Positions 241 to 39,006 of a DNA stretch of 40,354 nt are shown one piece after another (the first letter of the stretch is position 1; the number at the start of each line of letters is the position of its first letter). The notes under the pieces were generated by a model. That model was not told the DNA's origin, ran no database searches, and worked only from the letters and a program-made list of their open reading frames with translations. The position numbers and the translations under genes were made by a program. This DNA is from Raillietiella orientalis (lineage: Eukaryota), in contig JAYWIR010000179.1 in NCBI GenBank assembly GCA_036172245.1, forward strand, positions 1 to 40,354. The letters run 5' to 3'.

Positions 241-271
241 TTGCCACCCAAGTACGCCCGGGGCGTTTATT
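241..271 (-). terminator. 3' terminal AATAAA + hairpin of A
   Basis: AATAAA CG CCCCGG GCGTA CTTGGG T GGCAA. Confidence 0.75.
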
Positions 272-457
272 AAAACTCTACAAAAACGTGGTACGAGGTC
301 TTACTAATGGCTGCACAACTTCGGACCTGCTGAGACGCCGGGACGCCGGGACGCAGTCCGGCGGGATGCTGCTCGGCAGTGGAGGGCAGTTTGGGGGAAA
401 ACAAAAAAAATAAAATAAAGAAAAACAAAAGGAGTTTGGAAGGAATAAAATGGATCA

Positions 458-2352
458 CTATCCACTAGGAGGAGGGCCCATCCTTCGCAGGATGCCCTCT
501 AGGTCCTTCTGCGATTGTCCCAGATGGGGCCATCTCGCAGCTCTTTGCATGAAGCTCACAGCGTACGGGATGACTTCCCTCTCGTTGGCATCCACTCCTT
601 CGTCGCAAGTGTCAGTCTAAGCCGCCACGATGCCCCGTATGCAGCAGAGGGCTGCGACAGCTGCAGCGGGCTGCAGGGCGTCCCGCAAGAAGAGGGGCCG
701 AAGAACGTCTCTGGGCGCGCTGCCCATTGGGAGCCCGAGGGTCGTCCCGAACCGTTCCCACAGGGGTCGGAGGGCAGCACAGTCAACATGTAGGTGGGGG
801 AACGATTTCCGCTCCTCACACCTGGCACACTCAGGCCTTACACTTCCCCGCGTCCAGTGGAAGCGCCGCGCGTTGCAGGGTAAACCCCAGTGCAGCAGCA
901 GTAGTGCCGACTCTTGCCACTTTAGCGGGAGAAGCCTGGATCCGATTAATACTAAGGGCCACTTCAGGTCAACCGTCGGGATGCCGAGCAGCTCGTCCCA
1001 TCTAACAAGTCCACTTGGGAGGGCACTCGGGGTCGTGGCACCTGCCAGTTCCTCCATGGTCCAACCGCTCATTTTTTTTTCCCTGCCTGCGATCCGGCAG
1101 GAGATGTGCCACTTCGGCGTCCGCCCGCTGGTTAGAGCCCTTCGTAAGAAGGGCAGCGTCGAAGGCAAAGGGGTGGTCTCTGCCCACGTGCACCTGGCGG
1201 GACACTCCAGAGTGGTCCGCAGGGTGCAGCAGGCGTTGAATCCGATTCGCAGGCGGTACCATTCACGTCCAGTCTGGAGGTTCAGCTTGGCCCACGTCCC
1301 AACGGATTCCTCCAGCCAAGCGAAGGAGTTGGCGGGGCTGCATACCGTCCAGCCGTTCTCTCTTACCAGGGATTCCATGCGCCCAAGGAGAAGGCCGCAA
1401 CTCCTGACCTTCCGACCGTGGCACAGAAGGAAAGACGCGAGTACTTGCGTCCTCGATATACGGCTGGCAAGGATGCGGGCCGGGACGCACCAGGGGGTGT
1501 TCCACGTCTTTGCTGCGATGGCTAGGGTGCGCCATCGCAGCTGTATGTCCATGTGCTCCAACGTCAGGAGTCCAAGACCACCGTCCCGACGCGGAGCGCA
1601 TATGTGCTTAAGAGGTGCACGAGGCCTCCCACTGCCCCAGAGGGCGATGCGGACAAGGTCTTTAGTCCTCTTCTTCAGATCAAGGGGGACGGGGCACACA
1701 AAGAGCAGGAGCGGAGGATGGAAGCCGCGAACGCGTTCCACACCGCGGCCCGTTCCGGCAGAAGGAACTTGCCTTCCAGGAACGGGTCGATTGCCAACTC
1801 TTCCTTTTGGAGACGAACTGACCAGGCTTCTGCGAGGCAGGATTCCCCCAACGGGACACTCAGGTACTTCAGGTACCTGGCCGTGGAAATCCCCAAGCAA
1901 ATTCAGTCAGGCCGTCCATCCCACGTCGCACCCACCGGTACCACCGACGACTTCGCCTTGCTAACCTGCAATCCAGTCCCACGGTTTAGCAGATCGAAGA
2001 AATCCTCGACTGCGGCTGCCAGGGCGGACATCGGCAACATCAGCAGAAGATCGTCGGCGTACGCAGCCACTGCGGGCGTGCCGGGGCACGAGCTAGGCAA
2101 GCCAGCCAAGGTCACCCTGTACGCTCTCAGCACCAAATCAAAGTAGGTGCTGAAGAGCAGGGGACTAAGGCTATCGCCCTGACGTATGCCCCGCCGCACC
2201 GGCACGCCGTACGTTGTTTGTGCGCTGGAGGAGACGTTGATTAGCGCTTTACGCCAGCAAGAGCGCAGGTAGCAGTGAAGAGAGGGTGGGAAGCCCATGA
2301 GACCCAAAAGCTCCAACAGTAGCTCCTGGTCCACGCAGTCGAACCCCTTGTG
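458..2352 (-). pseudogene. Element A ORF2 piece 4 (RT C-terminal half and zinc finger)
   Basis: FDCVDQELL...RGIRQGDSLSPLLF...AYADD...YLKYL...CARCEERKSFPHLHVDC, with stops and frameshifts. Confidence 0.88.
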
Positions 2353-2363
2353 TGCTCCAGGGT

Positions 2364-2370
2364 GGACGTG
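2364..2370 (+). promoter_or_regulatory. DPE-like RGACGTG motif at the 5' end of B
   Basis: GGACGTG 11 nt inside the TSD-defined end; conserved in all seven visible 5' ends. Function is inferred. Confidence 0.55.
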
Positions 2371-2446
2371 TTTTCTTGGTGCTCCTCGTGCCAGGAAGTC
2401 TCCCTTAGTGCAAGCGTCGTGTGGTTCGGTGGTCGATCAGGCAGCG

Positions 2447-4122
2447 ATGCCAGACGCGACCACCAGGGATGGCCAGGGGGCAGCAGAAACGCCGCCCCCA
2501 GAGGCGATGGAGAGCCAGGGGGCGGCGGCAACGTCGCCCTTGGAGTCGATGGAGGCGAGGGCATCCGCCCCCACAGAATCGGTCCCCGCTGCAACGCGGG
2601 CGTGGAGCGCCGTTGTGTCGGCGCCATCGCCTGCAGCCGCGGCGGAATTGTCGGCCTATGTAGAGGAGGGGTACAAACCCTCATTGTTCTACAAGGTAGG
2701 CAATTTATATTCTTTAGAGAGCGCGCGCGCCTTCTCGAAGGGCAGGCGCGCTCTCGATGTGAAAGAGGAGGAGCTCAGCGCTATGACCATCGGCAGCGGG
2801 GATCAGTACGTTAAGGTCATCTGCAAACAAGCAGAGCTGGCCCAATGACTGCTTAAAACCATCGTTGTGATGGGGACGCGCAGGCTTCTCCCCACTACGG
2901 CGGACCGCAGCATGGTGGTCCACCTGTTAGGTGTTACCGCGCGGATGCGCAAGGAACAGGTTCGCGCCGCGTTGGAGGAATACGGAACGGTCCACGCGCC
3001 GTGGACGAAAGTTAGTCCTTTCGAGGACTACACGGGGCTACAACACGGCCTCACTGCTGCGCGCGTGACCGTTCGGGAGGGCTGCACTCTTCCCCACAAA
3101 CTGGTGGTCGAAGGCGAAACCGTCGACCTCTGGTATGTGGGGAAGCCGAAATACTGCGGCTTCTGCAATACGTCGGGCCACCTCAAAAAGAGGTGTCCCA
3201 ATGTGCAGTGCCAAGTATGCGGCACAATGGACCACACGAGGGAGGTGTGCCCAAAAGCAGCAGTGCGGGTAATTTCCATGAGAAACCTTAAAAAACGCGC
3301 TCGGCTTCTGCAGAAAAGGCTGGCGGCGAAAGCTGCCGCGAAGGCTGTGCCACCACCGACCAAGACCCAGGCCGCACTCGAGACCCCGGCGACCAACGCC
3401 GAAAAAGTTGAGGGAGCATGCGAGGAGACTGAGTGGCAAGTGGCAACTGCCAAAAAATCAAAGAAGGAGAGGAGGATGAAAAAGAAAATCGCCTACCAAC
3501 AGAAGAAGAAAGAGCAGGGTAGCGCGATAATTAAAGAGTGCAGCGTCGTTGTCGAACGCGTTCTCGATGTTGCCGAACGCTGCCGGAAAGAACTCGCCGC
3601 TACCGACGACCTCCCCTTTGTTGACACAGTCAACAGCGAGGGGAGCGAGCCGGCGGCGGCGTCCGTCATTGACACAACCATCGATGACGTAGCCTTTGCG
3701 CGAGCCGCGGAGGAGCTGGCAGCTTCGTTGCAGCCAGAACCCTCCAAGACTGGCAAGAAGGCCGTAAGGCATCCGGCCTCCCCTCAGGGATCCCCCACTT
3801 CCGACCCCGAGGTGGAGGCCGGAAGCGCAGCCTCCGTTTCCGCGGCACCCCGCAAGATGGCTGGACGTAAGTCCACAAAGCCGAGGAAGCTCGTCTCCCC
3901 CGTCGAGGGGGAAGAGATGGCTTCCGTAAGCAAGGGTGCCATGAGCGTGGGAAACTCGCGGGACCCGTCGCCCGAGAGAAACCCACGCGCGGACACGGAG
4001 GGGATGGAGGGGTGGAGGCCGAACAGGTGCCTCAGGTGCCTGAGAAGGCCGAAACCCCCATGGACATCTTGCCCGCCTCGCAAGAGGAGGGCTCCCTCAC
4101 ACCTTAATCTTCCCAGCAGTAA
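2447..4122 (+). pseudogene. Element B ORF1 (zinc-knuckle protein), premature TGA at 2846 and frameshift near 4010
   Basis: Contains CGFCNTSGHLKKRC and CQVCGTMDHTREVC, and ends in the TAATG overlap at 4120-4124. Confidence 0.87.
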
Positions 4123-4285
4123 TGCCAAGAATCTCCTCCCGCCGTCGTCTGCGCATCGCCGTTTGCAACGCGAACGGCATGACAGACGCCGGCAGGAGAC
4201 GAGACATGGCCGCCCTTCTGGAGTCTTACGACCTTGCGCTGCTGCAGGTGATCCACGTGATCTCTGCAGAAGAAGCGCAGGAGAT
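4122..4285 (+). pseudogene. Element B ORF2 piece 1 (AP endonuclease N-terminus)
   Basis: MPRISSRRRLRIAVCNANGM...LLQVIHVISAEEAQEI, interrupted by C. Confidence 0.85.
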
Positions 4286-4315
4286 TTCTCACCCGGTCAT
4301 GCCGGGGCGTTTATT
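4286..4315 (-). terminator. 3' terminal AATAAA + hairpin of C
   Basis: AATAAA CG CCCCGG CATGA CCGGG T GAGAA. Confidence 0.8.
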
Positions 4316-4639
4316 CCATATAACATAACCAAAAGAAAACCAGTTATACAAAATAAACCAGTTGGGAACCAAACTCCCAACCGACGACTGAACAAGAATG
4401 AAGAGAATATTGCTGGCACGCAGGCCAGAGTAAAAGTTTTGTGAACGGTGTGGAAGGGCAGGGAACACAAAGAAACCAAAATAAAATAAAAACAATAAAT
4501 AAGGAGGACGGGATAAGGGTCTTTGGGATCGCTCTGGAAGACACGGGGATAAAAGCATGGGCACCGGAAATTTTCCGAGGGAACGGGGATGGGGTATAAG
4601 TGGGCGAGAGGTCGCAGGGGTCACCGGATAACGGTGTTC

Positions 4640-7600
4640 TCAAAGGTCTGTAAACCGGCGATGTATGCCGCTGATGTCCTCATTAAACTTGTCACGAAGA
4701 TGAGACCACCTTGAAGCCTTCTCCATGAATTGAGCTGCAAGCAGGTGAGCCTCCTTTCGCTGCGCTGACAACTCCAGGGCGCAGCGGGCCTTCACGATGG
4801 CGCGAACGCAACACATAGTTGCGACAATCGCGCCAACCGAAAGTCCATTTCTGCTGAAGAAGCGCCGCAGCACATCAATGGCAGTGCCTCCTTGTGGCAT
4901 GATGGCCGGAATGAGCCTTCGCCACAGTTCCCGGAGGTCACCGCAGTCCAGCAAAAGGTGCGGAAAAGACTCGATCTCTCCGCACCTTAAACAGTTTGGC
5001 AAAGCAGCTCCCCCGAAAACGATGCTTCGCTTCCTAATACAGTGTAATGCACAATGTAAAAAGAGCAGCACATCTTGTTTCCACTGAAGGGGGAACACGG
5101 AGCTGTCCAAACAAACGGGAAGAACCACTATCTCTCCGGAGGGCACACTTCAATGTTCGCTCCACCGAAGCAGGCCCTTCGCCCGATTCCGAGGTGTGGC
5201 GGCTTGCACCAGCTCCTTTGTCGTCCAGCTGCCGAGGAGCTTACTGACTCCCGCTATTTAGCAGGAGAACTCCCATTCTGCCGGTAGGCAACCGTCGTTG
5301 CGTGCCCTGAGGGCAGACAGCGCTGCGGCGAGTGGTGTGGCGGCCAGACGATCCGACAACTTCTTGTCCTGCATGACTTCGTCCATTTGATGACTGAGGA
5401 GAAGTCGCAGGCGTCGAAGATCTTCCAAGCGCGTTCCTTCGGAAGCTGCCCACGATGAAAAAGATTCCTGTCGCTATGCATTAATGTTCATGGGGCTGCA
5501 GGAGATCCAGATTTGGGCTTCCAGCAGTGAGGACAGCTGCCTCAGCGGAAAGCCAAACCCTATTCTGATGTGTCGAAATCAGTCCCTCGCTTCACGAGCA
5601 GCGCCTCAGTATAAGGCGTGCGGGTAAGCACCAGGGCGTACACCACAGCTTGGGACAGAGCCGCAGCATGCGAAACTGCACCTGCAGTTCGATGCTCTTT
5701 AAGTCGAGGATGCCCAAGCCTGCATCCTGACGCGGCGCCACCAAGTCTTTAAGTCTAACACGGGATCTTGCAGCGCCCCACAGCGCTTTGCGTAGAAAGC
5801 GCTGCGCCCAGACTTTCACTTCCTGAGGGGGTGGAAAAACAAAAAACAAAGGGCGGAGTAGGGGGGCAACGAAGGTGTTCCAGATGCAGGCCCGTTCCGG
5901 CAAGACGAACTCGCCTCCTGAAAACGGGCCAAGTGCACGCTCTGCCTTCCGAAGGCAGTCCGACCACGCTTCTGAGTTGCAGAAGTCGCTCAACGGCACG
6001 CCAAGGTACCTGAGGGACCTGCCCGTGGGGATCCCCAGGTCGATCCAGTCGGACTGCCCCTCCCACGTCGCACCAACCGGAACAACCATACACTTACTCC
6101 TGTTAACGCTCACGCCCGCACCGCGACGAATCAACTCAAAGAAGTCTTCAAGCGATGTCGCCGGGGTGGACATGGGCAACAGGAGAAGCAGGTCGTCGGC
6201 ATAGGCTGCCACGGCCGGCGTACCTGGACAGGAGCTCGGCAGGTTGGCTAGCGTCAGCCTGTAAGCCTCCAGCACCAATTCGAAACAGATGCTGAAGAGC
6301 AGCGGGCTTAAGCTATCACCCTGCCTAATTCCTCGTCGTACCGGCACGCCATACACGTGACAGCCACTGAAAACAATGGATGTAATCGCGTGGCGCCAGC
6401 AGGAGCGCAAGTACGCCAACAGGGATGCAGGAAGACACAGACGTTCCAAAAGCTCAAGAAGAAGCTTTTGGTTCACGCAATCGAAAGCTTTGTGCAAATC
6501 GACTGCAACCGCCAAGGCTCCCGGTGTCTCCCTTTGCGTTTCGCGCCTCCGTCGGTGAGAGATCGAAGGCGTCGCTTCCGCACGACGATCCACCGCCACA
6601 CGATGCTGCAATTGCAGCCATGTGCGGATGAACAAGAGATTCGCGTCCATGGACCGCCCAGGAACAGCGTACGTCTGCTCCGGACTTACCAAGGATTCCG
6701 CGATCCTACTCATCCGCGCCACCCAAAGTTTCGAGAGCAACTTGACGTCCGAATTCACTAATGTGATCGGACGCCAGTTGTTCAGTTGGCGCAAATCTCC
6801 GCCTTTCGGCAGTAGACGCACCTTCGCTGAGCGAAACGAGGCGGGGACATCGCCCGAGTCTCGCATCAGCGACGAGAGTTGGAGCACCAGCGGGATGAGC
6901 TCCGCCGCAAAACACTGAAAGAATTCCGCGGGGAGCCCATCTTCGCCTGGCGCTTTTCGTCTCTTGAGCCCCGTGATGGCCGAGGAAATTTTCTCTGTTG
7001 TGAAGGGCTCATCAAGACGCGCGCGTTCCTATTCGTCTGCAACAGGTGCATCAATCGGCAGAAGCACCCGAGAGAGGCTGCGTTCCGTCGGTGCCTCTGC
7101 ATACAGAGAAGAGTAATAGCGCCTGACTATCCGTCGCACGTCGGCTGGAGCCGAGCATTCCCGGTCCTGGTCGTCGAGCCGAACTGTCGACCCTGACTGC
7201 CAGACCTCGCGCTCGGCCTTGGCTTTGAAATCGGATAATCGACCAACGTCCGCGCGCCTGGAAAAGGAGCGGGCCTTCAGAAAATCTCTGCTGTTGGCTA
7301 CGCCCTCTCCGAAGCCGCGCGGAAGCTGGTGCAAGGGAAACCGGCAGCAGAACTCGCGGACCGATCTTTTCAGCCGTCCCAGTCCTCGAGCTCACTTATG
7401 GCAAAGCCGAGGAGGTACTGGCGAAGATGCTCAGCCGCCTCCGGGTGGCTTAGCCAGTCTCCCGGTTTCCTCCAAAAACAGTTTGGAGGCCCCTTGCCTG
7501 GCGGGAGCAACTCGAACTCGAGCCTGTTGTGGTCAGAAAGCACGGACGGCACGGGACCTCTCCGACCCACTCGACAGAGCAAGTGTTCATCCAGATATAC

Positions 7601-8194
7601 GTGGTCCGGCGTTGCTGCCATAACAGGGTCGCTAGCGAACAAGTTGCACGCGTGCACGGACTCGCACATCTCTTCCGCTAGCAACTTTTCCCTTTTGTGG
7701 GATCTATTCTCGGAAAGCAGGTGGACGTTAAAGTCCCCCGCAATGAGATGGGCCACAGTAGGGTGAAATCGAGTGAGCCACTGGCTTTGAAGGGTACCAA
7801 AGGACTCAATCCTTTCGGCCCATCGTCCAAAACCGCTCGGCGCGTACACGTTGGTTACGACAAGGTCGATCGAGTCGGACCACTTGAGTACAAGCTGTCC
7901 CACTCGACCTTCCGTGTCGAAACGAACACTGCGCACCGCTCCCGCCAAAGTTCCTCGCACGAGGAAAGCGACGCCGCACGTACGTGCAACGCCGCACCTA
8001 TAAAGTAGCGTTCCGCCCGCGCGCCGTTCGCTTTCGGCAGCCTGCTCTCCGGAGATGCTGTGAATCTCCTGCAGGAGCGTCAAGTCGAAGGCACGCAGAA
8101 CGTCAGCCACTAGTCGCCTCTTCTCCTCGTTCTGGAGCCCGTTGACGTTCCAAGACGTTACGGCAACACGACGAGAAGACGCGATTGCCCTCAT
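4640..8194 (-). pseudogene. Element C ORF2 (endonuclease, RT, zinc finger), frameshifted
   Basis: SWNVNGL, LQEIH, AGDFN, LSDH; DLHKAFD, RGIRQGDSLSP, YADD; CLRCGEIESFPHLLLDC. Confidence 0.9.
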
Positions 8195-10097
8195 CACTGC
8201 TGGGAAAGCGAGGCCGTGCTGCTCGCCTCACTCGGCGAGCGGGCAGTAAGCAGCACGACGGGCTGGAGGGCGCGGTCGCCACCGGCCTCAACTGTGCTGC
8301 ACGTAATCGGGTGCTCCTCCCCGGGTTCAGGACCTGTGGGTTCCGGGGAAGCACTCGCCGTTCCGCGGCGAGTATGTCACGCCTCAGGGCTTCAGCCCTG
8401 CGGGCGCTCGCTCCCGCGCGAGTAACGCGTCGTTCAGCGGCGCTATCGGACTCCTTTGCGGAGTCTGATGCTCGCACGATCGACGTGCGCTTGCATCCGT
8501 CCGATTGCACCGGAATGGTCTTCTCGGCGGTCACAGAAGCGGACTTGCACGCGTTGAAGGCGCTGGCTTTTTCCTTAGAAGAGGCACAAGCCGCGCGTGT
8601 TTTCGTATTCCCTCGACTGCTTTTTCCTTTGGAAGAGCTCAGGGATGGATGTTGCGGAGCTTTTTTTGGAGATTTTTCTTTCCTACTCTCCACAATCTTT
8701 TATACGCTTTCGCGATTTTCGGAGGCTTCCGCGACAGTAGTTGCGGAAACCTCCGGGATTTTCGCTGCGTTCTCTGAGGGCGTTGCTTTCGCTACGCATT
8801 TAAAAGGCGGCAACGGAGTCACCTTCTTGACAGTCAAGAGATTGCTCCTCTCCTGCCGAGTCGGCGATGGGGCGACTGCATGCAGCGTGCTTTTGCTCGT
8901 TGCGACGCTGCTTTTTACGGCTTTCGTAGCCTTTGCAGAGGGGCTTGCGCTGCAGTGGAGCTGTCCGGAACTCGGAAGGGACAACGGAACGGCGCAAGAA
9001 GTCTTCCCACTGTTGCGATCTTCCTGTTTTCCTACCTTTCTCACCAGGGTGTTACGGAGATTTCCTGGTTCCTGGCTCGGAGAGGTGCCTGCGAGTTCGG
9101 CAGAGAGGGAAGACACGGCACGCGTCAAACCCTCACGCCCCTTTTTCATTGGCTTCCCCGCCGTCACCTTCCCCTTTCGGGGCGTTGCGGGCGGGGATGC
9201 TTTCTTTTCATCCGCGGATCGCTCGTGGTTTTTTGCGAGTTTTCGCGGACGACGTTTTTTATTTGCCGCTGCGGCTTTTCGTGCAGTGGTCTCTTGAACC
9301 CGACGAATTTCTGCTGCGGCTCTTTTTCTTGCAAGTACCGGGCACTTTTTGATTTCGTGCCCGGAATCTTTGCAATAGCGGCATCTTGGAGAGGGGCACT
9401 CTTTAATTCGGTGGCCATCCTTGCCGCACTGCTTGCACGCGCGAGTCTGGCCTATGAATCACAGGTGAACGACCGTGCCGTTCACCTGCAGCTGCTCAGG
9501 CACAACACGCCTGTTCGCGACGGTGATCCGCGCGGAGGCTTGTCCAATGTGGACAGAGGGGAAATCCTTTAGAGGATTTGGTCTCCTCCACAAAGCGTGC
9601 ACTGTGGCGAACTTTGCCAGCACACTTACGACATCGCGGTTGGAGATTTCCGGTTCGATGTCGGACAATTGAACGACAAAATAGTCGTTCATCGCGGTAG
9701 GTAGGACTTCCTTGCCATTCATGGTCAACGGCGTACGAAGAAGGCGCTGCACAAGTGCTGCGTTCTTGCACCGAATCTTCGTATATTCCATCCTGCCAGC
9801 AGGCATTATGGCAAGGAGTTCCTCCTCGCGAACGCCGATCCGGACGTGCTCATCATTGAGCTCACGACCGATTCTCCCGTTGAGGGGCCCACTGACCTTA
9901 TAACGGAGTGCAGGCATGTATCCTGATGACACATATGCCTGGAACTCCGCATCGCAGGGTCCTGGTCTTTGGGAGGTAACGGCGGCGTAACTCCTCACCG
10001 GGGGCGAGGACACCATTACGGAGGATGGGGCCAATTCAAGTGCAGCTGAAGTGCATCCAGTGGCTTGCTCTTCTACACTATTTTGTGTACTGGCCAT
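8194..10097 (-). pseudogene. Element C ORF1 (zinc-knuckle protein with long K/A/S-rich tail), stop at 9459 plus later disruptions
   Basis: MASTQNSV...HL*FIGQTRACKQCGKDGHRIKEC...CRYCKDSGHEIKKC, ending in the TGATG overlap at 8192-8196. Confidence 0.85.
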
Positions 10098-12620
10098 GTT
10101 GCACTATGCTACTTGGCAGATTGCACAGGAACACACAACTGCGAGCTAAAACGCGGGCACAAAGTTGCCCGATCGTTGGCGCTGATAGACGCGGATACAC
10201 GTCTGCACTGTACGAGCCCGGGAGATGAAACGCATCTCCGGAGGGCGGCTATGGTACAGGTGTGGGAGAGCGAAAAGTTGCGGTGTCGCCTACCTGCTTT
10301 GGCCAGCCGTCGAGGCCGCGGCTCGGGGCGTACGGTTCGACGATCACGGTCTTGTCGGCCAGCTGACTCTCAGTTGGTCCGACTCGATCGACCTCATCAT
10401 CACGATCGGTTACGCGCCGAGCGGAGCGGACCTGACGAACAGGAGGTCCAGCAAAGAATTTTTCCTTGCTCTCCATCGCGACTGGTTGACCGAGGCAGGC
10501 GTGCGGAATGCCCATCTGGTTGCAGGCGATTTTTACGTTCGTCTGAAACCGGATGGGTCCAATCACGAGCGGAACCTAGTCTACAAGGTGTGCCAGGAGG
10601 TGCACACTTGTAATTTGTTGGTCAGTGTACCAGGGATAGAGGACAACATCGATCACGTGTTTCTTGACGAGCACCTGTGCACTCGTGTGGGTAAGCGCTG
10701 CAAGTTACCGTGCGAGTTGTCCGAACATCGACAAATCGTGATTGAAATCCATCCGCGCGACAGGGGCCCCCCTCGTCAGCGTGGCGTTTGCCAGGGGACT
10801 GGCTTAAGCTTCCGGACGCGACGGAACATCTCCGCACGTTCATACGGAGCTTCAGGATGCAGACACTTCAGGATTTCGACCGCTTAGAACGGTCGGTCCA
10901 GGAGTTCTGCGACCAGTTCCTTCTGCACCGCTTACCTACGGGTTTTGGGACCTGGGTCCGTAACGAACGAGCCTACCTGCAGGCCCGTCGTTTCGCCAGG
11001 ACCCCCGACATCCGCAGACTGGCGGAATACAAAGCGGGAGCCGAGAGGCAAGCCTGGCAGTCAGGATCGGCCAGCCTGCTGGACGATCAGGGCCAGGAGC
11101 ATTCGGCACCCGCTCAGATCCGCGGTCTGCTGTGGCGTTTTTACTCCTACCTGTACGCAAGAACGTCTCCCGAGCGAGATTTCTCCCGACTTCTGCTTCC
11201 GGAAGGCGCTCCTGCGAACGGGGAAGAGGAGAAAAAGTCCCTCAACGAGCATTTCACGATGGGCGAGATTATCTCGTCCATCGGAAAGCTCAAGAGGCGC
11301 AAGGATCTAGGGGAGGACGGCCTGTCCGCGGAGTTTTATCAAACTTTCGAGGCTGAGCTAACCACCCTGGTACAACAACTCACCTTGCTGTTACGCGAGA
11401 CAGGTGACGTTCCCGCCTCGTTTCGTTCGGCAAAGGTGCGCCTTCTCTCTAAGGGAGGAGATCTGAGAAGCTTCAACAACTGGCGTCCCATGACAATAGT
11501 GAATGCGGATGCCAAGTTGACATCTAAGGCTTGAGCTGAGCGCATGGGACGGGCTGCAAACCCCTTCATCAGCCCGGAACAGACGTATGCTGTTGCGATG
11601 CGAAGCATGGAGGCGAACCTATTCCCCGCTTCCACCTGGCTAGAGCTTCAACATGAAAGGAGCTTGGTGCGCAGCCGGAATTCCGGTGCGTGCGCCGGCA
11701 AGGGGTTGGATGGTCGGGTGGGGGAGGGAGCCCTTGCGGTCGCAATCGACTTGGAAAAGCATTCGATTGTGTCGACCAGAATCTCCTTCTGGAGCTTCTG
11801 GAACGCTTGGACTTCCCGGCCTCATTAGTGGCCTATCTGCACTCCTGCTAGCGCGACGCGCTCATCAATGTTACTTTCAGCGGGCAGACCGTGCACGGCG
11901 TGCCGGTACGGCGTGGGATCCAAAAGGGAGACAGCCTGAGCCCCTTGCTCTTCAGTACCTACTTTGAGCTGGTACTGAGAGCGTACAGGGGAACTCTGGC
12001 GCACTTGCCGCACGACTGTGCCGGTACGCCGGCCGTTTCAGCATACGCGGACGACCTTTTGCTGCTGCTCCCTATGTCTACCCCGGCTTTGGCGGTCAAG
12101 GAGTTCTTCGACCTGCTGCATCGGGGAACCGGACTTACGGTGAACAGGGCGAAGTCGTCCGTGATGCCAGTTGGTGCGGCGTGGGCAGGGCAGCAGGACT
12201 GGGTCCGTTTGGGGATCCCCACAATGAGGTACTTCAAGTACCTTGGTGTGGTTGGGGGACTACTCCCCTGCGGAAGCGTGGTCCGGCTGCCTCCAAAAAG
12301 TAGAGACGGCGATCGGCCCGTTCCGAGGCGGCAGGTTTTTCCTGCCTGAACGGGCCGCGGTTTGGAACACGTTCGCGGCTTCTCTCCTCTGTTCCCTGCT
12401 TTTTGTTTGCCCCCCCACAGAGAGGATTAAAAAGCGGACCAAGGACCTCCTCCGTATCGCCCTTTGGGGCAACGGGAGGGCCCGAGTCCGCTTAAAGGAC
12501 TTGTGCGCTCCTCGTCGGGAAGGTGGTCTGGGCCTCCTGACGCTGGAGCGACTGGAGCTTTAGCTCCAGTTCCGCTTGTCGGCACTCGTTCCAGAGTTGT
12601 GGTGCACCTGTTGGTGCGAC
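8857..12620 (+). repeat. Left arm of a large inverted repeat (partner ~36590-40354) spanning the C/B junction
   Basis: Near-identical ORFs on opposite strands (e.g. 10225..10887 vs 38324..38986), with shared stops and frameshifts. The right boundary is approximate. Confidence 0.9.
10198..10204 (-). promoter_or_regulatory. DPE-like RGACGTG motif at the 5' end of C
   Basis: AGACGTG 10 nt inside the end. Confidence 0.55.
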
Positions 12621-25790: not shown

Positions 25791-25820
25791 AATAAACGTC
25801 CCGGCGCACCCGGGTTTCAA
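25791..25820 (+). terminator. 3' terminal AATAAA + hairpin of D
   Basis: AATAAA CG TCCCGG CGCAC CCGGG T TTCAA. Confidence 0.8.
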
Positions 25821-26163: not shown

Positions 26164-26193
26164 TTATCACCCGGTCACGCCGGGGCGTTTATT
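26164..26193 (-). terminator. 3' terminal AATAAA + hairpin of E
   Basis: AATAAA CG CCCCGG CGTGA CCGGG T GATAA. Confidence 0.8.
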
Positions 26194-26476: not shown

Positions 26477-29400
26477 TCACCGGGCTGGCCGCTGATGAGG
26501 GTGTGTAAACCGGCGGTGTATTGCGGCGAGATTCCTCTTTGTCTCCTCTGTCAAATGAGGCCATCTAGCGGATGCTCCCATGTAGAAGGATGCTTTGCTG
26601 ATTACCTCTTGGTGCTGTCCGTTGATTACCAACGCCTGGCGGACGGAAACTATCGCGCGTATGCAACCGATGGATGCAATCCTTGCGCTTAGTGAAAGCC
26701 CGCTCGGCGTGAAGAATCGTCGCAGCAAGTCTCTTGCGGTGTCCACGGGATGCAATAGTGCTGTTGCCAGCCTACGCCACAGTCCTTGTAGGACACCGCA
26801 GTCCAGAAGTAGGTGCGGAATCGACTCCGTCGATCCGCACCGAACGCAGTTCGCAGACGCATGTCCCCCGGAGTCACGATGCCAACGCTCGTTGCAATGA
26901 AAACCCCAGTGAACGAAAAGCAGCACGGCTTGTTTCCAAGCAAGGGGGAGCAGCGAACTGTCCATACACTGTGGAGGGACTACAAGTTCTTCGGGGGTGA
27001 CAGCAAGTTCTTCTGCCCACCGGAAGAGTCCCTTTGCAGTAACACGAGGAGTGGCGGCGTCCGCCAACTCACTTGTCTTCCAGGTGCCAAGGAGTATGGT
27101 TCTTCCCGCTATCGTGCAGGAAACCTCCCATTTCGCCGGTTGGTAACTGTCGTTTCTTGCCCTGAGGGCAGACAGCGCTGCGGCAAGAGGCGTGGCAGCC
27201 AGGGTAGAAAACTTTACCTCGTCCTGCAGTACTTCTTCCAAGGATCGTGGAAAAAATTGACGCAGGGGGCGAAGATCTTCAGGGCGTATTCCTTGGAACG
27301 CCGCCCAGGATTCAACAGACTCCTGCCGCCAAGCTTCAAAGTTCATTGGGTTGCAGGAGATCCAAGAGTGTGCTTCCAGAAGTGCGGTCAACTGCCGCAA
27401 TGGAAAACCGAAACCCCGCTTCCTGTATTGAGTGCCCGGCAAAAGCGAGAGAAATCCTCCGCTGCCGGCGCATCTCCGCAGGAGGATGCGAGCTGGCACA
27501 CACAGGGGGGATGTCCATAGCTGGGCACACAGTGCCAGCAGTCGGAACTGCACCTGCAGTCCGATTCGCTCCATTGTCAGGATACCCAAACCAGCATCCC
27601 GACGCGGAGCTGAAAAATCTTTAAGGCGGATCCTGGATCTCGCCGGACCCCAGAGAGCGTTCCTGAGCAGGCGCTTAGCCCGCTGTTTTGCCGCATAGGG
27701 GGGATCCAAAACAAAAAACAGGGGACGGAGGAGGGGGGCCACAAATGTGTTCCAAATAGTCGCCCGTTCCTGCAAGGTAAACTTGCCGTTAAAGAACGGG
27801 CTGATGGCCAACTCTGCTTTCTGAAGACAGTCCGCCCACGCTTCGGCTGCGCCGAAAGCGCCCAACGGAACGCCAAGGTACTTAAAGTACCCGCCCGTGG
27901 GGATCCCCAGGCGGATCCAGTCGGACTGCCCCTCCCACGACGTACCCACAGGAACGATCACGCTCTTCTCTCTGTTCACGCTCACGCCCGCTCCCCGACG
28001 AATCAGGTCGAAGAAATCCTCGACACTGGACGCCGGGGTGGACATGGGGAGCAGAAGAAGCAGGTCATCAGCGTAGGCGGCCACGGCAGGCGTTCCCGGG
28101 CAGGAGCTTGGCAAGTGAGACAGCGTCAGCCTGTATGCCCTTAGCACCAACTCAAAGAAGATGCTGAAAAGCAACGGGCTTAAGCTGTCGCCCTGTCGGA
28201 TGCCCCTACGAACGGGAATACCATACACGCGGCAGCCGCTGAAAGTAATGCAGGTTAGCGCGTGGCGCCAGCACGCACGCAAATACAGCAGGAGTTGCGC
28301 CGGGAACCCAAGCCGTTCCATAAGCTCCAAAAGCAGCTTCTGGTTTACGCAGTCGAACGCCTTGTGGAGATCGACCGCGACCGCCAAGGCACCTGGCGTT
28401 GCCTCCTGCCGTCGGCGCCTGTTCTTCTTGCTTGCGGCAGTGACTTTCGCAGCAGCCTGGCTTTGCTGCGCCACAACTTCCTGCAGCTGCATCCATGTAC
28501 GCGCGAAAAGGATGTTCGCCTCCATGGATCGTCCCGGAACCGCGTAGGTTTGTTCCGGGCTCACCACAGATTCCGCGATACTTCCTAACCGCGCAACCCA
28601 CAGCTTGGAAAACAACTTGACGTCCGAGGTCACCAAGGTGATCGGACGCCAGTTGTTAAGTTGACGCAAGTCTCCGCCTTTCGGTAGGAGACGCACCTTC
28701 GCTGAGCGGAAGGAATCCGGGACATTCCCGGATTCACTCATCAGCGTCGCGAGTTTCAGCATCAAGGGAATGAGCTCCACTGCAAAGCACTGATAAAACT
28801 CTGCAGGGAGCCCATCCTCGCCTGGCGCCTTTCGTCTCTTCAGCCCAGCGATTGCGGACGAAAATTCATCCGCCGTGAAGGGCTCGTTGAGACGTTCGCG
28901 TTCCTCCTTGCCGACAACACGAGCATCCTGAAACAGGAGTATCTCAGAAAGAATATCCTCCGTCGGGGATTCCGCGTAGAGCGAGGAGTAGTAGCGTCTC
29001 ACAATGCGGCGTACTTCGGCTGGGGCCAAACATTCCTGGCCCTTGTCGTCCAACAGGCATGCTGCTCCGGACTGCCAGACCTGGCGCTCGGCCCTCGCCT
29101 TGTACTCTGCGAGACGCCCGACATCCGCGCGTCTCTAAAACGTGCGGGCCTGCAGAAAGTCTCTACTGCTGGCCACGCCCTCTCCAAAACCGCGTGGAAG
29201 CCGGTGCAAGGGGATTTGGCAACAGAACTCGCGGACAGATCTTTTGAGATCGTCCCAGTCCGCAAGTTCTTGAATGGCAAAGCCCCGGAGGTATCCACGT
29301 AGATGCTCCGCAGCCTCCGGTTGGCTAAGCCAATCCGCCTGCAGCCTCCAGCTTTGCAACGGAGGCCCCCTGCCTGGCGGAAGGATCTCAAACTCCAACC

Positions 29401-30070
29401 TGTGGTGGTCAGAAAGCTCAGTCAACAATCTTCCTCTCCTACCCACACGCGAATGCAGGTTTTCATCGAGGAAAACGCGATCGAGCGATCTTTCCATTCC
29501 AGGTTCGCTGACCATCAAGTTGGCGGCGTGCACGGACGCGCACATCTCGATGGGCAGCGCGCGCTCCCTCGGGCGGCTCCAATCGTCGGAGAGCAGGCGG
29601 ACGTTGAATTCCCCAGCGACGAGGTGCGTCACTTGGAAGCCGGAGTTGTTGAGCCAGTGGCTCTGCACGTCACCAAAGAAAGCTACTCTTTCTTCGAGGT
29701 AGCGAGAGCCACTCGGCGCATAGACGTTCGTAACGACGAGATCGATGGACTCGGACCACTTGATGACAAGCTGGCCTATCCGTCCGTCGTCATCGAAACG
29801 AACACTACGCACCGCTTCCGCCATTTGTCCTCTTACGAGGAACGCGACGCCGCACGTGTGTGCGCCGCCGCACCGCCAATGTAGCGTTCCGCCTGCGCGC
29901 TCCTCGATTTCGGCTGCCTGCTCGTCGGAGATTACGTGAATCTCCTGCAGCAGCGCGAGGTCGAAAAGGCGCAGGGCGTTGGCTACTAATCGCCTCTTCT
30001 CGTCGTTCTGCAGTCCGTTCACGTTCCAACACGTTACGGACAGACGACGAGAAGACGCGATTCCCCGCAT
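26477..30070 (-). pseudogene. Element E ORF2, ~1197 codons, near-intact (single in-frame TAG at 29135-29137; GDFN changed to GEFN)
   Basis: ORFs 29135..30070 and 26477..29053 are in one frame. Endonuclease, RT (DLHKAFD, RGIRQGD, YADD, KYLG) and CVRC..HLLLDC motifs are present. Confidence 0.93.
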
Positions 30071-31991
30071 TACTGCTGGGAAGGTGGCAGCTTTTTGCTC
30101 GCTTTATCCGGCGAGCAGACGGCGAGCAGCACGACTGGCTGGAGGGGACGGTCGCCACCGTCCTCTGTCGTGCTGCATGCATGTAATGCCTCCACGCCAG
30201 GCTGAACCCCGTCGGGTTTCGTTGAGACTTCGCGTTGCTTCGCGGCGAGCGTTGCCTGGCTGCCTACTTTTGATCGGCGCGCACACGCTTTCGAACGAGT
30301 TGTCCTCGTCTCGGTGATCGGAACGGCATCCATTTCGGAGTCCGACCGGCGCATGTTCGATCGGGTTTTGGCCTTCCGCGAAGCAGTGACAGGTTCTGCT
30401 GGATTGACAGCTGTCCTGTTTTCGTTTTCCGTCACCAGAGCATCGCTTTTGGTGACGGCTGCTTTCCCGGCGCGCGCGTTTTCAGCGTTCTCACGCGCAG
30501 TTGCACGAGGGACCTTTGCTGAAGTCTTCTTTACTTCATTACGGTTACTCACTTCGCGTGGCGCCGTAAATGGAGATTGTGCTCCATGGCCATCTTTGAA
30601 GCCATCCGCGTCTTTGGACGGGAGCACTTTCGATGGCTCCGACACGCTCGTCATGGACGCTGCTTTCGGAAGGGCTTTTAATCCCTTCGTTGGCATGGCA
30701 TCCGCGCCAGTCGAGAGCTTGCTCTCCGACTGCGACGGCGTGAGATTTTTCTCCGCTTTCGCGGTGTTGGATCGCGACGCGGATTTTATTTTGCCGACTT
30801 TCGAAGTCGACACGGCACAACCCTTCTTACCCGATTTGGGCTTCTCAGCCACTGCAGGAGGTGAAGGAATGGATCTGACGGTACTGGAAATGTTCTTACC
30901 GCCGTTGTCCATTGGCGTCCCTGCCGGTTGCTCGAACTCCGAGAGAGCCGGGCGTGCTTGGGAAGGACAGCTATTGCGCCTAGGGGGACTTACCATTGCC
31001 CCGGATTCCCCGCACCCTTTCTTTTGCGGCTCCCCTGCCGCGAGAGGGGGTGCGCAGGGCTTCGCGTGCGAGGTTTCCTGCTGCTTTGGGGCGAAATTCC
31101 GCCTCGCGTTTTTACCGAATTTCTGCCGTGGGGTCTCCAGGTTTTTCGCAGATTTTTTCTTTTTATCCGCGCTTTGTTTTTTAAAATGGAGCTCCGCGGC
31201 TGCCTTTTTCGCAAAAGATCCGGGCAATTTTTCAATTGGTGCCCGGATAGTTTGCAATAACGGCATTTTCCAGAGGGGCATTTATCCAAACAATGCCCCT
31301 CCTTCCCGCATTGCTTGCACGTTTTTGCTTTGCCCACGAACCACAGGTGAACGACCGTGTCTTTCACCTGTAGTTTGGTGGGCAGCAGACGGCGGTCCGG
31401 CATTGTAAGCCGGACTCCAGCGACTCCGCTGTGTATGGACGGGAAGTCCTTGAGGTTGCTACGCACCCTCCACAGCGCATGGACCGTGGCGAATTTCGCC
31501 AACGCGTTCCGAAGATCAGTATCGGAGATTTCCGACTCGATGTCGAAAATCTCCACCACAAATGAGTCGTCCATGGCGGCCGGGAAGACCTTCTGGCCAC
31601 GGATCGACAACGGGGTGCGCAGCAAGCGTTGCACAAGTGCAGCGTCTTTGCAACGCACCTTGAAATAGCCCATGTCTTTTACGGGCATAATGGCGAAAAG
31701 GTCCTCCTCCCGCACGCCAACACGGGTCAGTTCATCGTTGAACTGATTCCCGTCGCGCGCAGAAAGAAAACCACTCACCTTATATCGGAGAGCAGGTCTA
31801 TAGCCTTGGGCTACGTATGCCCGCAACTCCGACTCGTCGAGTGGTTTCCCTTTGACGGCCGCTGTCGCAGCAACGTCAGCAAAACTCCTCTCCATTGGCG
31901 AGAAAGACGAAGTGGAGGCGGCCGTCGGTTCCGCGATTGCAGATCCGGATGCTGTTCCTCCAACTTCAGTAGCTTCAAGTTGGGTCGACAT
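30070..31991 (-). pseudogene. Element E ORF1 (zinc-knuckle protein), one frameshift in an A-run near 31205
   Basis: Contains CKQCGKEGHCLDKC and CRYCKLSGHQLKNC. Built from ORFs 30990..32015 and 30070..31281, ending in a TAATG overlap. Confidence 0.88.
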
Positions 31992-32056
31992 AGTCGTCAA
32001 AATGTACGACGCCAAGATGAAGCGGATGAAAGCACGGAGACGAGAGCGAAGAAAAA

Positions 32057-32063
32057 CACGTCC
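32057..32063 (-). promoter_or_regulatory. DPE-like RGACGTG motif at the 5' end of E
   Basis: GGACGTG 6 nt inside the end. Confidence 0.55.
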
Positions 32064-32069
32064 GCACTC

Positions 32070-34510: not shown

Positions 34511-35348
34511 CGGGGATTCGGCGGGGAGCTGCGGAACGACCAGGCATACCACGACGCCCGTCTTTACTCTAGGACTCCCGACGTTCGACGCCTGGCGGAG
34601 TATAAAGCTGGGGCTGAGCGACAGACCTGGCAATCCGGGTCGCACAGCTTGCTGGACCCCCAAGGCCAGGAATGCTCAGGTCCGGCGAAAATAAACCGCA
34701 TTTTACGGAACTATTACTCCTCCTTGTACGCGCGTAGAACAACAGAGCGCGCCGTGGCGCAGCGCTTGCTGCCGCAAGGCGCCCCGCGCTGCAGGAGGAG
34801 CAGGCACATCAACTCGAGGACACTTTCTCGATGGCGGAGATCATCTTCACCATTGGAAAGCTCAGAAAGAGGAAAACACCAGATGAAGAAGGTCTGCCCG
34901 CGAAGTTCTACCAATGCTTCGTGGCGGAGCTGGCCCCCCTGGTGCATCGGCTTCGCATGCTGATCCGAGAACAAGGGTACGTCCCCAAATCGTTCCGGTT
35001 AGCTAGAGTACGTCCTCTGCCGTAAGGAGGAGACAATCGCAACGTAGGCAACTAACGTCTTATCACAGTAGTGAATGTGGATGCGAAGTTGCTTGTCAAG
35101 CTTTGGGCTGAGCGACTGGGACGGGTAGCGGATTCCGTGGTGAGTCCGGAGCAGATATACGCTGTTCTCGAAAAAAGCATGGAGGCCAAACTGTTCCTCG
35201 CCAGTACATGGTGGCTGTTTCAACAAAGCGAAGACCAGGGAGGTCAAGAGAATCCTGGATTCTTTTCTGACTAGTGAGGGGACGCCCATCATGGAAGAGT
35301 TGCGCCCGATGCCCTTGCGGTTGCAGTGGATCTGCGTAAAGCGTTTGA
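34511..35348 (+). pseudogene. Host element Z, ORF2 fragment 2 (linker and RT N-terminal half up to DLRKAFD), degenerate
   Basis: Resumes where fragment 1 stops (RGFGGELRNDQAYHDARLYSRTPDVRRLAEY...), then KRKTPDEEGLPAKFYQ, VNVDAKLLVK, SPEQIY and AVDLRKAFD, with several stops and frameshifts. It is cut by the 3' end of G. Confidence 0.85.
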
Positions 35349-35379
35349 TTTTTACCCGGATTACCTCGGGTCGTTTATT
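35349..35379 (-). terminator. 3' terminal AATAAA + hairpin of G
   Basis: AATAAA CG ACCCG AGGTAATC CGGGT AAAAA. Confidence 0.8.
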
Positions 35380-35563
35380 AAAAAATAAACTTTATAAAGA
35401 AATTATTTATGGCTGTGGCAATGCTCGAGCCAGAGGCGAGGAACCACGGAGCCTGCCAATTTACCGGTTTCTAGACCAGTACGTTTCACCAAGGCAGCAG
35501 GGAAAGGGGAGAAACAAAAAAATAAACAAAAAGAAACAAACGGTGGGAGGGAACGGGAAGGGA

Positions 35564-38500
35564 TCACTGATGCTGCTGGGGCCGGATCACTCCCTCTCAG
35601 GATGCTGGCAAGCTCTTGTTTGTTGTGAACATCCAGGTAAAGCCATCGCGACGCCTTCCTCAGGAATTGGGAGGCGCACTGGATGGCGTCCTGACCGCCT
35701 GGTCCTTCCGTCGCCGTGCTCCATGCGGCGACGATCCCACGAAGCCAGCACAAGGCTCCTATCGAGGACGCTGGCCGGAGGGCGTCGGCAACGAAGAAAG
35801 GTTTTAGTGCGTCCCTGGGGTTGCCGCAAGGGATACCGATGGTCGCAGCAAATCGGAACCAAAGGGGCCGAAGTGCAACACAATCCACTAGAAGGTGGGG
35901 GAGGGACTCCCGTTCCCCGCACCTTACACAATTGGGATCCACCGCTCCTCAGGTGCAGTGGTGTCGACGGGCGTTGCAGGGGAGTCCCCAGTGCTGCAAC
36001 AGGAATGCCGATTCTTGCCATTTTAGGGGGAGGATGGAAGTGTTCGTAAGAAACGGGTGCCACTTCAGATGTTCAGTCGGAACATCCAGCAGCGCTTTCC
36101 AGCGCAGAAGTCCATTAGGAGGCGTACTCGGGGTCGCAGCATCAGTTAGCAGGCCCGCCTTCCACTCTCTCTGCTTCTTGTCCTTCCCTCAGATTTTTAT
36201 TGTAACCTTCCACTTCGCCGCAACATTGCTGTCCCGATGTTCCACAAGGGAGTCCAGCGCAGCAGCGAGGGAGGTTCTTCCTGACCAGGCTCTCTTCTTA
36301 GGATCCTCCAGGATCTCACGAAGCGTGTAACTTCTGTAACACCCAAACAGGAACCTTCGTTCCTGATGGCAGGGTTGCATGCCGAACTGTCCCCACGTGC
36401 GAACGGTTTCCTGCAACCAGGCACTGCTGTTCGCGGGGAGACAGGTAATCCATCCTTGATTTTTCCTTGCCAGCGCAGCCACCCTCCATAGCTGAAGCCC
36501 ACATCGGTTGATGCGGCTTCGATGGAGTGCAAGAAACGGCGTAAGTCCCGTCTTGCCGGTATCTTCCTGAAGGAGGAGACGTGCAGGGACGCACCAACAG
36601 GTGCACCACAACTCTGAAACGAGTGCCGACAAGCGGAACTGGAGCTGAAGCTCCAGCCGCTCCAGCGTCAGGAGGCCCAGACCACCATCCCGACGAGGAG
36701 CGCACAAGTCCTTTAAGCGGACTCGGACCCTCCCGTTGCCCCAAAGGGCGATACGGAGGAGGTCCTTGGTCCGCTTTTTAATCCTCTCTGTGGGGGGGCA
36801 AACAAAAAGCAGGGGGCGGAGGAGAGGAGCCGCGAAAGTGTTCCAAACCGCGGCCCGTTCAGGCAGGAAAAACCTGCCGCCTCGGAACGGGCCGATTGCC
36901 GTCTCTGCTTTTTGAAGGCAGCCGGACCACGCTTACGCAGGGGAGTAGTCCCCCGACGGCACACCAAGGTACTTCAAGTACCTCAGCGTAAGAATTCCCA
37001 AACGGAACCAGTCCTGCTGCCCTGCCCACGCCGCACCAACTGGCATCACGGACGACTTCGCCCTGTTCACCGCAAGCCCGGTTCCTCGATTCAGCAGGTC
37101 GAAGAACTTCTCGACCGCCAAAGCCGGGGTAGACATAGGGAGCAGCAGCAGAAGGTCGTCCGCGTATGCTGAAACGGCCGGCGTACCGGCACAGTCGTGC
37201 GGCAAGTGCGCCAGAGTTCCCCTGTACGCTCTCAGTACCAGCTCAAAGTAGGTACTGAAGAGCAAGGGGCTCAGGCTGTCTCCCTTTCGGATCCCACGCC
37301 GTACCGGCACGCCGTGCAAGGTCTGCCCGCTGAAAGTAACATTGATGAGCGCGTCGCGCCAGCAGGAGTGCAGATAGGCCACTAATGAGGCCGGAAAGTC
37401 CAAGCGTTCCAGAAGCTCCAGAAGGAGATTCTGGTCGACGCAATCGAATGCTTTTCGCAAGTTGATTGCGACCGCAAGGGCTTCCTCCCCCGCCCGACCA
37501 TCCAACCCCTTGCCGGCGCACGCACCGGAATTCCGGCTGCGCACCAAGCTCCTTTCATGTTGAAGCTCTAGCCAGGTGGAAGCGGGGAATAGGTTCGCCT
37601 CCATGCTTCGCATCGCAACAGCATACGTCTGTTCCGGGCTGATGAAGGGGTTTGCAACCCGTCCCATGCGCTCAGCTCAAGCCTTAGATGTCAACTTGGC
37701 ATCCGCATTCACTATTGTCATGGGACGCCAGTTGTTCAAGCTCCTCAGATCTCCTCCCTTAGAGAGAAGCCGCACCTTTGCCGAACGAAACGAGGCGGGA
37801 ACGTCACCTGTCTCGCGTATCAGCAAGGTGAGTTGTTGTACCAGGGTGGTTAGCTAAGCATCAAAAGTTTGATAAAACTCCGCGGACAGGCCGTTTTCCC
37901 CTAGATCCTTGCGCCTCTTGAGCTTTCCGATGGCCGAGATGATCTCGCTTATCGTGAAAGGCTCGTTGAGGGACTTTTTCTCCTCTTCCCCGTTCGCAGG
38001 AGCGCCTTCCGGAAGCAGAAGTTGGGAGAAATCTCGCTCGGGAGGCGTTCTTGCGTACAGGGAGGAGTAAAAACGCCACAGCAGACCGCGGATCTGAGCG
38101 GGTGCCGAATGCTCCTGGCCCTGATCGTCTAGCAAGCTGGCCGATCCTGACTGCCAGGCTTGCCTCTCGGCTCCCGCTTTGTATTCCGCCAGTCTGCGGA
38201 TGTCGGGGCTCCTGGCGAAACGACGGGCCTGCAGGTAGGCTCGTTCGTTACGGACCCAGGTCCCAAAACCCGTAGGTAAGCGGTGCAGAAGGATCTGGTC
38301 GCAGAACTCCTGGACCGACCGTTCTAAGCGGTCGAGATCCTGAAGTGTCTGCATCCTGAAGCTCCGTATGAACGTGCGGAGATGTTCCGTCGCGTCCGGA
38401 AGCTTAAGCCAGTCCCCTGGCAAACGCCACGCTGACGAGGGGGGCCCCTGTCGCGCGGATGGATTTCAATCACGATTGGTCGATGTTCGGACAACTCGCA

Positions 38501-38996
38501 CGGTAACTTGCAGCGCTTACCCACACGAGTGCACAGGTGCTCGTCAAGGAACACGTGATCGATGTTGTCCTCTATCCCTGGTACACTGACCAACAAATTA
38601 CAAGTGTGCACCTCCTGGCACACCTTGTAGACTAGGTCCCGCTCGTGATTGGACCCATCCGGTTTCAGACGAACGTCAAAATCGCCTGCAACCAGATGGG
38701 CATTCCGCACGCCTGCCTCGGTCAACCAGTCGCGATGGAGGGCAAGGAAAAATTCTTTGCTGGACCTCCTGTTCGTCAGGTCCGCTCCGCTCGGGGCGTA
38801 ACCGATCGTGATGATGAGGTCGATCGAGTCGGACCAACTGAGAGTCAGCTGGCCGACAAGACCGTGATCGTCGAACCGTACGCCCCGAGCCGCGGCCTCG
38901 ACGGCTGGCCAAAGCAGGTAGGCGACACCGCAACTTTTCGCTCTCCCACACCTGTACCATAGCCGCCCTCCGGAGATGCGTTTCATCTCCCGGGCT
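35564..38996 (-). pseudogene. Element G ORF2 (partial endonuclease, RT, zinc finger), disrupted
   Basis: ORFs 38324..38986, 37854..38423, 36933..37667, 36189..36707 and 35403..35942; motifs NLRKAFD, YADD and CVRCGERESLPHLLVDC. Confidence 0.88.
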
Positions 38997-39006
38997 CGTA
39001 CAGTGC

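Follow-up and report, generated by a model that had tools for sequence, protein, structure and literature searches.

Why should retrotransposons that have inserted into one another come to lie, at nearly every level of nesting, on the strand opposite to that of their host? The question is raised by contig JAYWIR010000179.1 of Raillietiella orientalis (GenBank assembly GCA_036172245.1). Its positions 1 to 40,354 on the forward strand, referred to here as the window, consist of nine L1-like retrotransposons of the type that lacks long terminal repeats (non-LTR), or long interspersed nuclear elements (LINEs), named Z, A to G and C'. Z is the host of A and G, and A that of B, D and E; C lies in B, F in D and C' in G, which gives a nesting depth of four with the outer host Z counted. 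Seven of the eight host–guest pairs are antisense, E in A being the sole sense pair. As a statistic, the antisense bias is not beyond chance and is not established. On balance, we favour an account in which the orientation of each guest follows family-specific and strand-specific endonuclease targets in the second open reading frame (ORF2) of its host, and three of the target sites, S1, S2 and S5, were found to be reused to the nucleotide.

The reuse can be followed most fully at S2, which lies in the codons for the KAFD residues of the reverse transcriptase (RT) and which we take to be RT motif A. B in A and G in Z abut their hosts after the same nucleotide of these codons, and both guests are antisense. 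The 3' end of B meets A at ...AAGGCGTTCGA| and that of G meets Z at ...AAAGCGTTTGA|, so that the host sense strand reads GTC GAT CTC CAC AAG GCG TTC GA| (VDLHKAFD) in A, at positions 13859-13881, and GTG GAT CTG CGT AAA GCG TTT GA| (VDLRKAF) in Z, at 35326-35348. The two hosts are 60.4% identical over the 840 nt adjoining the inserts and are not sisters in the tree, each being nearer to other families (69% for A and D, 64% for Z and D); a single duplicated composite therefore cannot have given rise to both insertions. The 3' untranslated regions (UTRs) of the two guests are 72-75% identical, which is about the level found between separate families (72.5% for B and D, 71.7% for G and D). Judged by these comparisons, B in A and G in Z are different insertion events.

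The evidence for reuse of S1 and S5 comes from other copies of the same families, found in the only public sequencing run that shared words with the window (X1; share 0.15, type listed as ‘DNA?’). The X1 contigs are mostly 90-99% alike to the window and thus derive from other copies, and they were available as consensus strings of 20-30 letters at six of 82 loose ends, together with a few joints. S1 comprises the LPxGF codons at about residue 305 of ORF2, where A sits in Z. One X1 contig follows a B-like host up to position 10930, continues with 20 letters homologous to S1, and then enters the A terminus at 241. The 20 letters end at the same nucleotide as S1 and differ from Z at about half of the positions, which argues that an A-like element sits at the same site in a different host. 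S5 comprises the endonuclease codons for GDFN, which we take to be a catalytic motif of APE-type endonucleases, and is occupied by E in A in the sense orientation. Two X1 records contain a 3' end that resembles that of C (at least 90% alike) but has a different flank, ATTTCGTTCTCCGTCTGC..., which reads ATTTCGTTCTCCGTCTGCTGGGAG on the insert strand, and this flank aligns to the ATTTCAATCTCCGCCTAC / ATTTCAATCTCCGCCTACTAACAG of A, starting exactly where the 3' end of E meets A. Since the 3' UTR of C does not align with that of E, the X1 insert is a C-family copy in an A-like host, placed in the sense orientation like E. For a host of about 5.6 kb, the chance that a second insertion falls on the same nucleotide and strand is roughly 1 in 11,000 per comparison, and three such coincidences among a few dozen possible comparisons lie far beyond chance.

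Several observations weigh against this account. Only two instances are known for each of the three reused sites, and S4 (occupied by D) and S6 (occupied by F) have one instance each. The X1 evidence amounts to the few loose ends, joints and short strings given above, and the strand at the 10930 to 241 joint is assumed to be unchanged (antisense), no strand change having been flagged. B and G are 92-99% identical in their 5' part and are therefore not fully independent sequences, and the 5' junction of G, with its duplication, lies beyond the window. E carries 23 nt identical to the S2 site of A and is unoccupied there. C itself, in B, sits at site S3 in the endonuclease region rather than at S5, and no motif is common to all seven target sites. 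On the strand of C, the C target reads GCGTTTC|ATCTCCCGGGC in the 5' copy and TTTC|ATCTCCCGG, and S5 reads TTTCAATCTCCGCC; by this resemblance, the insertion of C into B looks like an off-target event at an S5 look-alike on the antisense strand of B.

Two short motifs were considered and dropped. GGAGAT/ATCTCC lies in or beside four of the six sites (at the duplications that flank B, C, D and E) and occurs in 52 copies in the window, those near the sites being at 4280, 10221, 13872, 14768, 25822, 26152 and 32077; as a common target motif it was abandoned, its distance from the nicks varying from site to site. GTTYGA is found on the nicked strand at S1 and S2 only, and a hand count over the window gave 23 sense and 15 antisense occurrences, an asymmetry too weak to be the cause of a general bias. 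The alanine codon of KAFD also differs between the elements, being GCG (within GCGTTYGA) in the hit hosts A and Z and in the unoccupied E, GCA in the clade of B, G, D and F, and GCT in C. The difference between GCG and GCA may protect the B/G family from its own targeting (self-immunity), or may be a coincidence.

The weakness of the bias as a statistic follows from how the pairs are counted. The one-sided binomial probability is 0.035 for seven of eight pairs, 0.0625 for six of seven (with C' in G merged with C in B) and 0.109 for five of six, when counting by site class. The host–guest pairs are not independent because the segment 8857..14627, which spans the junction of C and B, has an inverted near-copy at 40354-34583 according to the self-comparison of the window. 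An initial annotation, made from the letters alone, had counted seven antisense pairs of eight, or six of seven if C and C' were one event, and had called the bias suggestive only, at about 0.06; our recount agrees, and the caution was well placed. The five antisense classes of six are best regarded as the outcome of a small sample and not as a general rule. The same annotation had listed a strand-asymmetric endonuclease target among the possible causes. This idea is supported in a modified form, three sites being reused and each family keeping to one strand at its site; it does not extend to a general antisense preference, given that the GDFN site yields sense insertions.

The inverted arms themselves are 92-99% identical up to about 12690 and 83-85% identical (the C-terminus of ORF2) up to about 13500, followed by 72-75% in the 3' UTRs (B against G) and 58-66% in the host parts (A against Z). 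Within B, the stretch 10214-12690 is thus 92-99% identical to G. The junctions of C with B and of C' with G are identical, including the extra 5' nucleotides, so C' in G is a copy of C in B. This copy would most likely have arisen when B and G recombined or underwent gene conversion, with a breakpoint close to 12690; the far end of the near-identical tract falls beyond the window. The arms that are 92-99% identical (8857-12690 and 40354-36520) are about 3.8 kb long, lie roughly 24 kb apart and are inverted, and identity falls abruptly at about 12690 and once more where the 3' UTR begins, a pattern that resembles a conversion or recombination breakpoint between the subfamily copies B and G, carrying C along. 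One segmental inverted duplication that would have created both B in A and G in Z was ruled out, as A and Z share 60% identity and both have closer kin among the other families.

Could the arrangement have arisen without target specificity? Random insertion into an all-LINE region, with shared sites produced by duplication or conversion of composites, is unlikely. Its binomial values (0.0625 and 0.109) are unremarkable, C' in G does copy C in B (identical junction, 94-99% identity), and the seven sites lack a common motif; the three coincidences at single nucleotides, each roughly 1 in 11,000 and involving hosts that share 60% identity or belong to different families, are nevertheless difficult to accommodate, as are the separation of A and Z in the tree and the 14-bp duplication that B has of its own. 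Slightly less probable still is a filter acting after insertion in both orientations, in which sense guests, being direct repeats of their hosts, are removed through recombination or deletion or suffer selection for disturbing host transcripts, so that antisense guests survive more often. Hosts and guests are indeed related LINEs, 58-80% identical, and the near-identical inverted arms show that copies recombine or convert; moreover, selection is suggested as one cause of the human bias against sense L1 in genes, in the portion of that report available to us (PMC5717806). Against this stand the identities of 60-75%, which are low for homologous recombination, and the state of the hosts, which were already broken and without function to protect. 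The filter also leaves the reuse of single nucleotides unexplained, and the sense site S5 recurs.

The initial annotation had also raised transcription-coupled targeting and host selection for loci yielding double-stranded RNA (dsRNA) or PIWI-interacting RNA (piRNA), both of which we consider less likely. If transcription of a host LINE displaced its sense strand and this strand were nicked preferentially, for instance in R-loops, antisense guests would result, and the orientations and duplication positions do place the first nick on the host sense strand in five of the six site classes; such coupling predicts scattered positions rather than exact reuse and conflicts with the sense insertions that recur at S5, and we judge it very improbable. 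The same low probability is given to selection for a locus that produces dsRNA or small RNAs against the families, comparable to a cluster of piRNAs or small interfering RNAs. All nesting levels but one are inverted, and long hairpins would form on read-through transcription, with 92-99% complementarity between the arms 8857-12690 and 40354-36520; yet the strands alternate (four elements plus, five minus) with no single antisense direction, and the exact reuse of sites is again left unexplained.

In the model that we favour, successive target-primed, endonuclease-driven insertions of full-length L1-like elements would have taken place into the ORF2 of resident elements, with each family recognizing its own DNA site in this conserved region: S1 for the A family, S2 for the B/G family and S5 for the C/E clade. 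Each such site occupies a single strand of the conserved coding sequence and would therefore fix the orientation of the guest relative to the host, antisense at S1 and S2 and sense at S5. The reuse of sites argues that target choice is sequence- and family-specific, and recognition of the target sequence by the endonuclease may be expected on this basis.

The structure of the termini is compatible with such a process. All seven visible 3' ends (at 241, 4286, 13858, 19669, 25820, 26164 and 35349) carry AATAAACG(C)CCCGG, a loop of 5-6 nt, CCGGGTG and 2-5 A, and thus end in a CCCGG/CCGGG hairpin without a poly(A) tail. The five pairs of the hairpin stem are nearly invariant, which speaks neither for nor against the fold. 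All seven elements with a 5' end in view (motifs at 2364, 10204, 14789, 25156, 32063, 34499 and 39007) reach the GGACGTGT motif, G(C/T)(G/A)GACGTG(T/C), behind 4-14 variable nt. Precise 3' junctions are combined with 5' junctions that contain these 4-14 extra nucleotides, a style that is likewise described for target-specific LINEs in the available part of a published account (PMC4640811). The full-length state and the hairpin 3' end are both unusual among L1-like elements. Taken with the target-site duplications, the precise 3' and variable 5' junctions and the conserved 3' hairpin fit target-primed reverse transcription, and what the RT recognizes would then be a specific structure at the 3' end, not a poly(A) tail. 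This reading draws on established knowledge of LINEs.

Target-site duplications of 9-17 bp flank the six insertions of A to F. That of D matches at 17 of 17 positions (left 14767-14783, right 25821-25837), that of F is perfect at 12 of 12 (GTCGGCACTGCT; 19657-19668 and 25161-25172), and that of E matches at nine of nine (left copy 26155-26163). The duplication of B matches at 13 of 14 positions (left 2339-2352, TCGAACCCCTTGTG; right 13859-13872) and that of C at 10 of 13; that of A is decayed, with about eight of 11 matching (left 230-240, GGGGTTTGATG; right 34512-34523). When the host flanks were joined with one copy of the duplication, an open frame was regained at all six sites tested. Empty sites are also present in X1, where one contig runs past 14783 straight into the sequence that follows the right duplication of D, corresponding to an empty D site, and a joint from 19666 to 13267 bridges the halves of D from a copy without F. 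When the loose ends of X1 were compared with the window by short-query BLAST, most matches were noise, and two loose ends proved to be diverged homologous sequence.

All 40,354 bases of the window are tiled by the nine elements. The tiling is based on the proteins of the two best-preserved copies, mapped back onto the window with tblastn, together with the self-comparison of the window. The locus consists of LINEs only and represents at least five diverged families, with a GC content of 53-64% across the window. Z, B, D and C' lie on the plus strand and A, C, E, F and G on the minus strand. The nesting and strands reported by the initial annotation, including the end at 241 and the junction of G and C' at 38997/38998, were borne out by the tiling, the duplications and the restored frames. 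A to F, six elements that lie entirely within the window, measure 5.5-5.9 kb each, and none is 5'-truncated. A Pfam scan found LINE domains in 16 of the 67 long open reading frames (RVT_1 in seven, Exo_endo_phos in five, zf-RVT in two and zf-CCHC in two), and every element has the endonuclease followed by the RT, the endonuclease being of the APE type and N-terminal to the RT in ORF2. The zf-RVT scores were 26.6 and 28.1 bits (cut-off 27.5) and the zf-CCHC scores 21.2 and 23.5 bits (cut-off 20.8), with no single stretch of the latter passing alone.

The outer host Z (plus strand) is represented by 1-240 and 34512-35348. Its left part, 1..240, covers the passage from the endonuclease region to the RT region (residues 2-61 of the query c4_RT match 57-236 by tblastn), and its middle part, 34512..35348, covers the N-terminal region of the RT up to the KAFD codons (...GCGTTTGA at 35341-35348). 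A (minus strand) spans 241-34511, its own parts being 241-2352, 13859-14783, 25821-26163 and 32070-34511. The first of these contains the 3' UTR, with the terminus at 241, and the C-terminal half of the RT down to the KAFD codons, the second the N-terminal region of the RT with site S2, the third the middle of the endonuclease, and the fourth the N-terminus of the endonuclease, ORF1 with a putative CCHC knuckle and the 5' end (motif at 34492-34499). Three tandem repeats of 57 nt, 75% alike, are present in ORF1 of A at 33026-33196 on the minus strand, with a weaker copy at 23836-23892, and probably encode a repeated coiled-coil-like segment.

B (plus strand) spans 2353-13858 and is divided into 2353..4285, which runs from the 5' end (with the GGACGTGT motif at 2364) through ORF1 into the endonuclease, and 10214..13858, with the remaining endonuclease, RT, a candidate zf-RVT and a 3' UTR that ends in the hairpin and GTGAAAA at 13858. 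Between these lies the full-length C (4286..10213, minus strand, 5928 bp), antisense in the endonuclease region of B at S3. From the hairpin of its 3' end at 4286, C continues through the RT, the endonuclease and ORF1, which has a putative CCHC knuckle, to the 5' motif at 10197-10204. D (plus strand) spans 14784-25820 and is antisense in A at S4; its first part, 14784..19668, carries the 5' end, ORF1, the endonuclease and most of the RT, and its second part, 25161..25820, the C-terminus of ORF2, the 3' UTR and the hairpin end at 25820. The full-length F (19669..25160, minus strand, 5492 bp) separates the two and is antisense in D at S6. E (26164..32069, minus strand, 5906 bp) is also full length and lies in the same sense as its host A, inside the GDFN codons of the endonuclease (S5). 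Its ORF2 (26477-30103, minus strand) is open for about 1,208 codons except for one in-frame stop at 29135-29137, and E may therefore be young or only recently inactivated. The right end of the window is occupied by the 3' part of G (35349..38997, minus strand), with the hairpin end at 35349, RT and endonuclease, antisense in Z and with its 5' part beyond the window, and by C' (38998..40354, plus strand), the 5' portion of a C copy that lies antisense in G and is 94-99% identical to C.

The closest relative of the RT of E among 5.8 billion proteins was a metagenome protein (P0001; 57% identity, 619 aa, on a 2.9-kb contig), and all other matches were at most 32% identical; the families therefore appear to be poorly represented in public data. 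A search of genome contigs with the E RT gave 47 pattern matches, none of which was confirmed, and viral contigs gave no loci. A metagenome scan with the conserved 3'-end pattern returned two loci, neither of which was similar to the window by blastn or tblastn, and both were regarded as chance matches.

Among described systems, the Zepp and ZeppL elements of green algae, L1 LINEs that insert into existing copies and form GC-rich nested clusters, offer a parallel (PMC3446292, PMC8226300, 10.1101/2025.03.28.645958, as far as the available text of each goes). As in these clusters, the locus described here contains only LINEs nested in LINEs (nine elements, 100% of the window), the likeness being one of described arrangement. 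The Zepp arrays are described, in the excerpts available, as tandem, made up mostly of 3' ends and frequently 5'-truncated (PMC8226300), and full-length ZeppL exceeds 8 kb (10.1101/2025.03.28.645958). In contrast, all seven elements with a visible 5' end reach the 5' motif here, the lengths are 5.5-5.9 kb, several diverged families take part, the end is a hairpin without poly(A), and seven of the eight pairs are inverted rather than tandem. With regard to the L1 superfamily at large, the order of APE endonuclease and RT and the duplications match, whereas the lack of a poly(A) or A-rich tail and of 5' truncation does not.

Known target-specific LINEs insert into ribosomal RNA, small nuclear RNA and transfer RNA genes, microsatellites, telomeric repeats and a DNA transposon. 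The target-specific LINEs with an APE-type endonuclease are found mainly in the Tx1 and R1 clades and use a fixed nucleotide of a multicopy target (PMC4640811, in the part available). The elements in the window are similar in having an APE-type endonuclease and in that independent copies return to one nucleotide, on one strand, of a multicopy target (two instances per site). Unlike the Tx1 and R1 targets, those used here are codons for catalytic motifs in the ORF2 of other LINEs, and the likeness is one of behaviour. No published LINEs targeting ORF2 motifs of other LINEs were found in the limited literature collection searched.

The human sense bias of L1 has been linked to its A/T-rich nick site. 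Nested human L1s number 21,559 in sense and 9,899 in antisense, an about 2.2-fold preference for sense, and nested human transposable elements show insertion hotspots and an orientation bias that are ascribed to intrinsic features of the element sequences (PMC2836564, in the passages available). The window differs from this statistical preference in its GC-rich coding motifs, the exact reuse of sites and the mostly antisense orientation. Unistrand piRNA clusters such as flamenco are likewise described, in the text at hand, as loci made up only of transposable elements in non-random orientation (PMC10643416). There, the elements are antisense to one direction of transcription, whereas the strands here alternate with nesting depth.

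A further, bolder possibility is that the families form a guild, in which the endonuclease of each recognizes the DNA of conserved ORF2 motifs (KAFD, GDFN, LPxGF) in other LINEs, making them hyperparasites of the resident elements. We put this forward tentatively, as somewhat less probable than the site-directed orientation itself. The motif copies of a family's own elements would carry synonymous differences, such as the GCA alanine codon of KAFD in B, G, D and F as opposed to GCG in A and Z. If the guild exists, competitors would be disabled and host genes spared, and LINE-only islands would grow with an orientation dictated by the targets.

For the interpretation of nested retrotransposons, a run of antisense nesting can arise without a transcription-coupled or small-RNA mechanism, and with site-specific guests the nested pairs are not independent trials, which calls for caution in orientation statistics. 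If confirmed genome-wide, the catalytic-motif codons of other LINEs would be a new kind of target for site-specific LINEs and would provide a concrete route for the self-nesting growth of LINE-only, possibly centromere-like islands, and the families would point to natural APE-type nucleases with long, GC-rich recognition sites.

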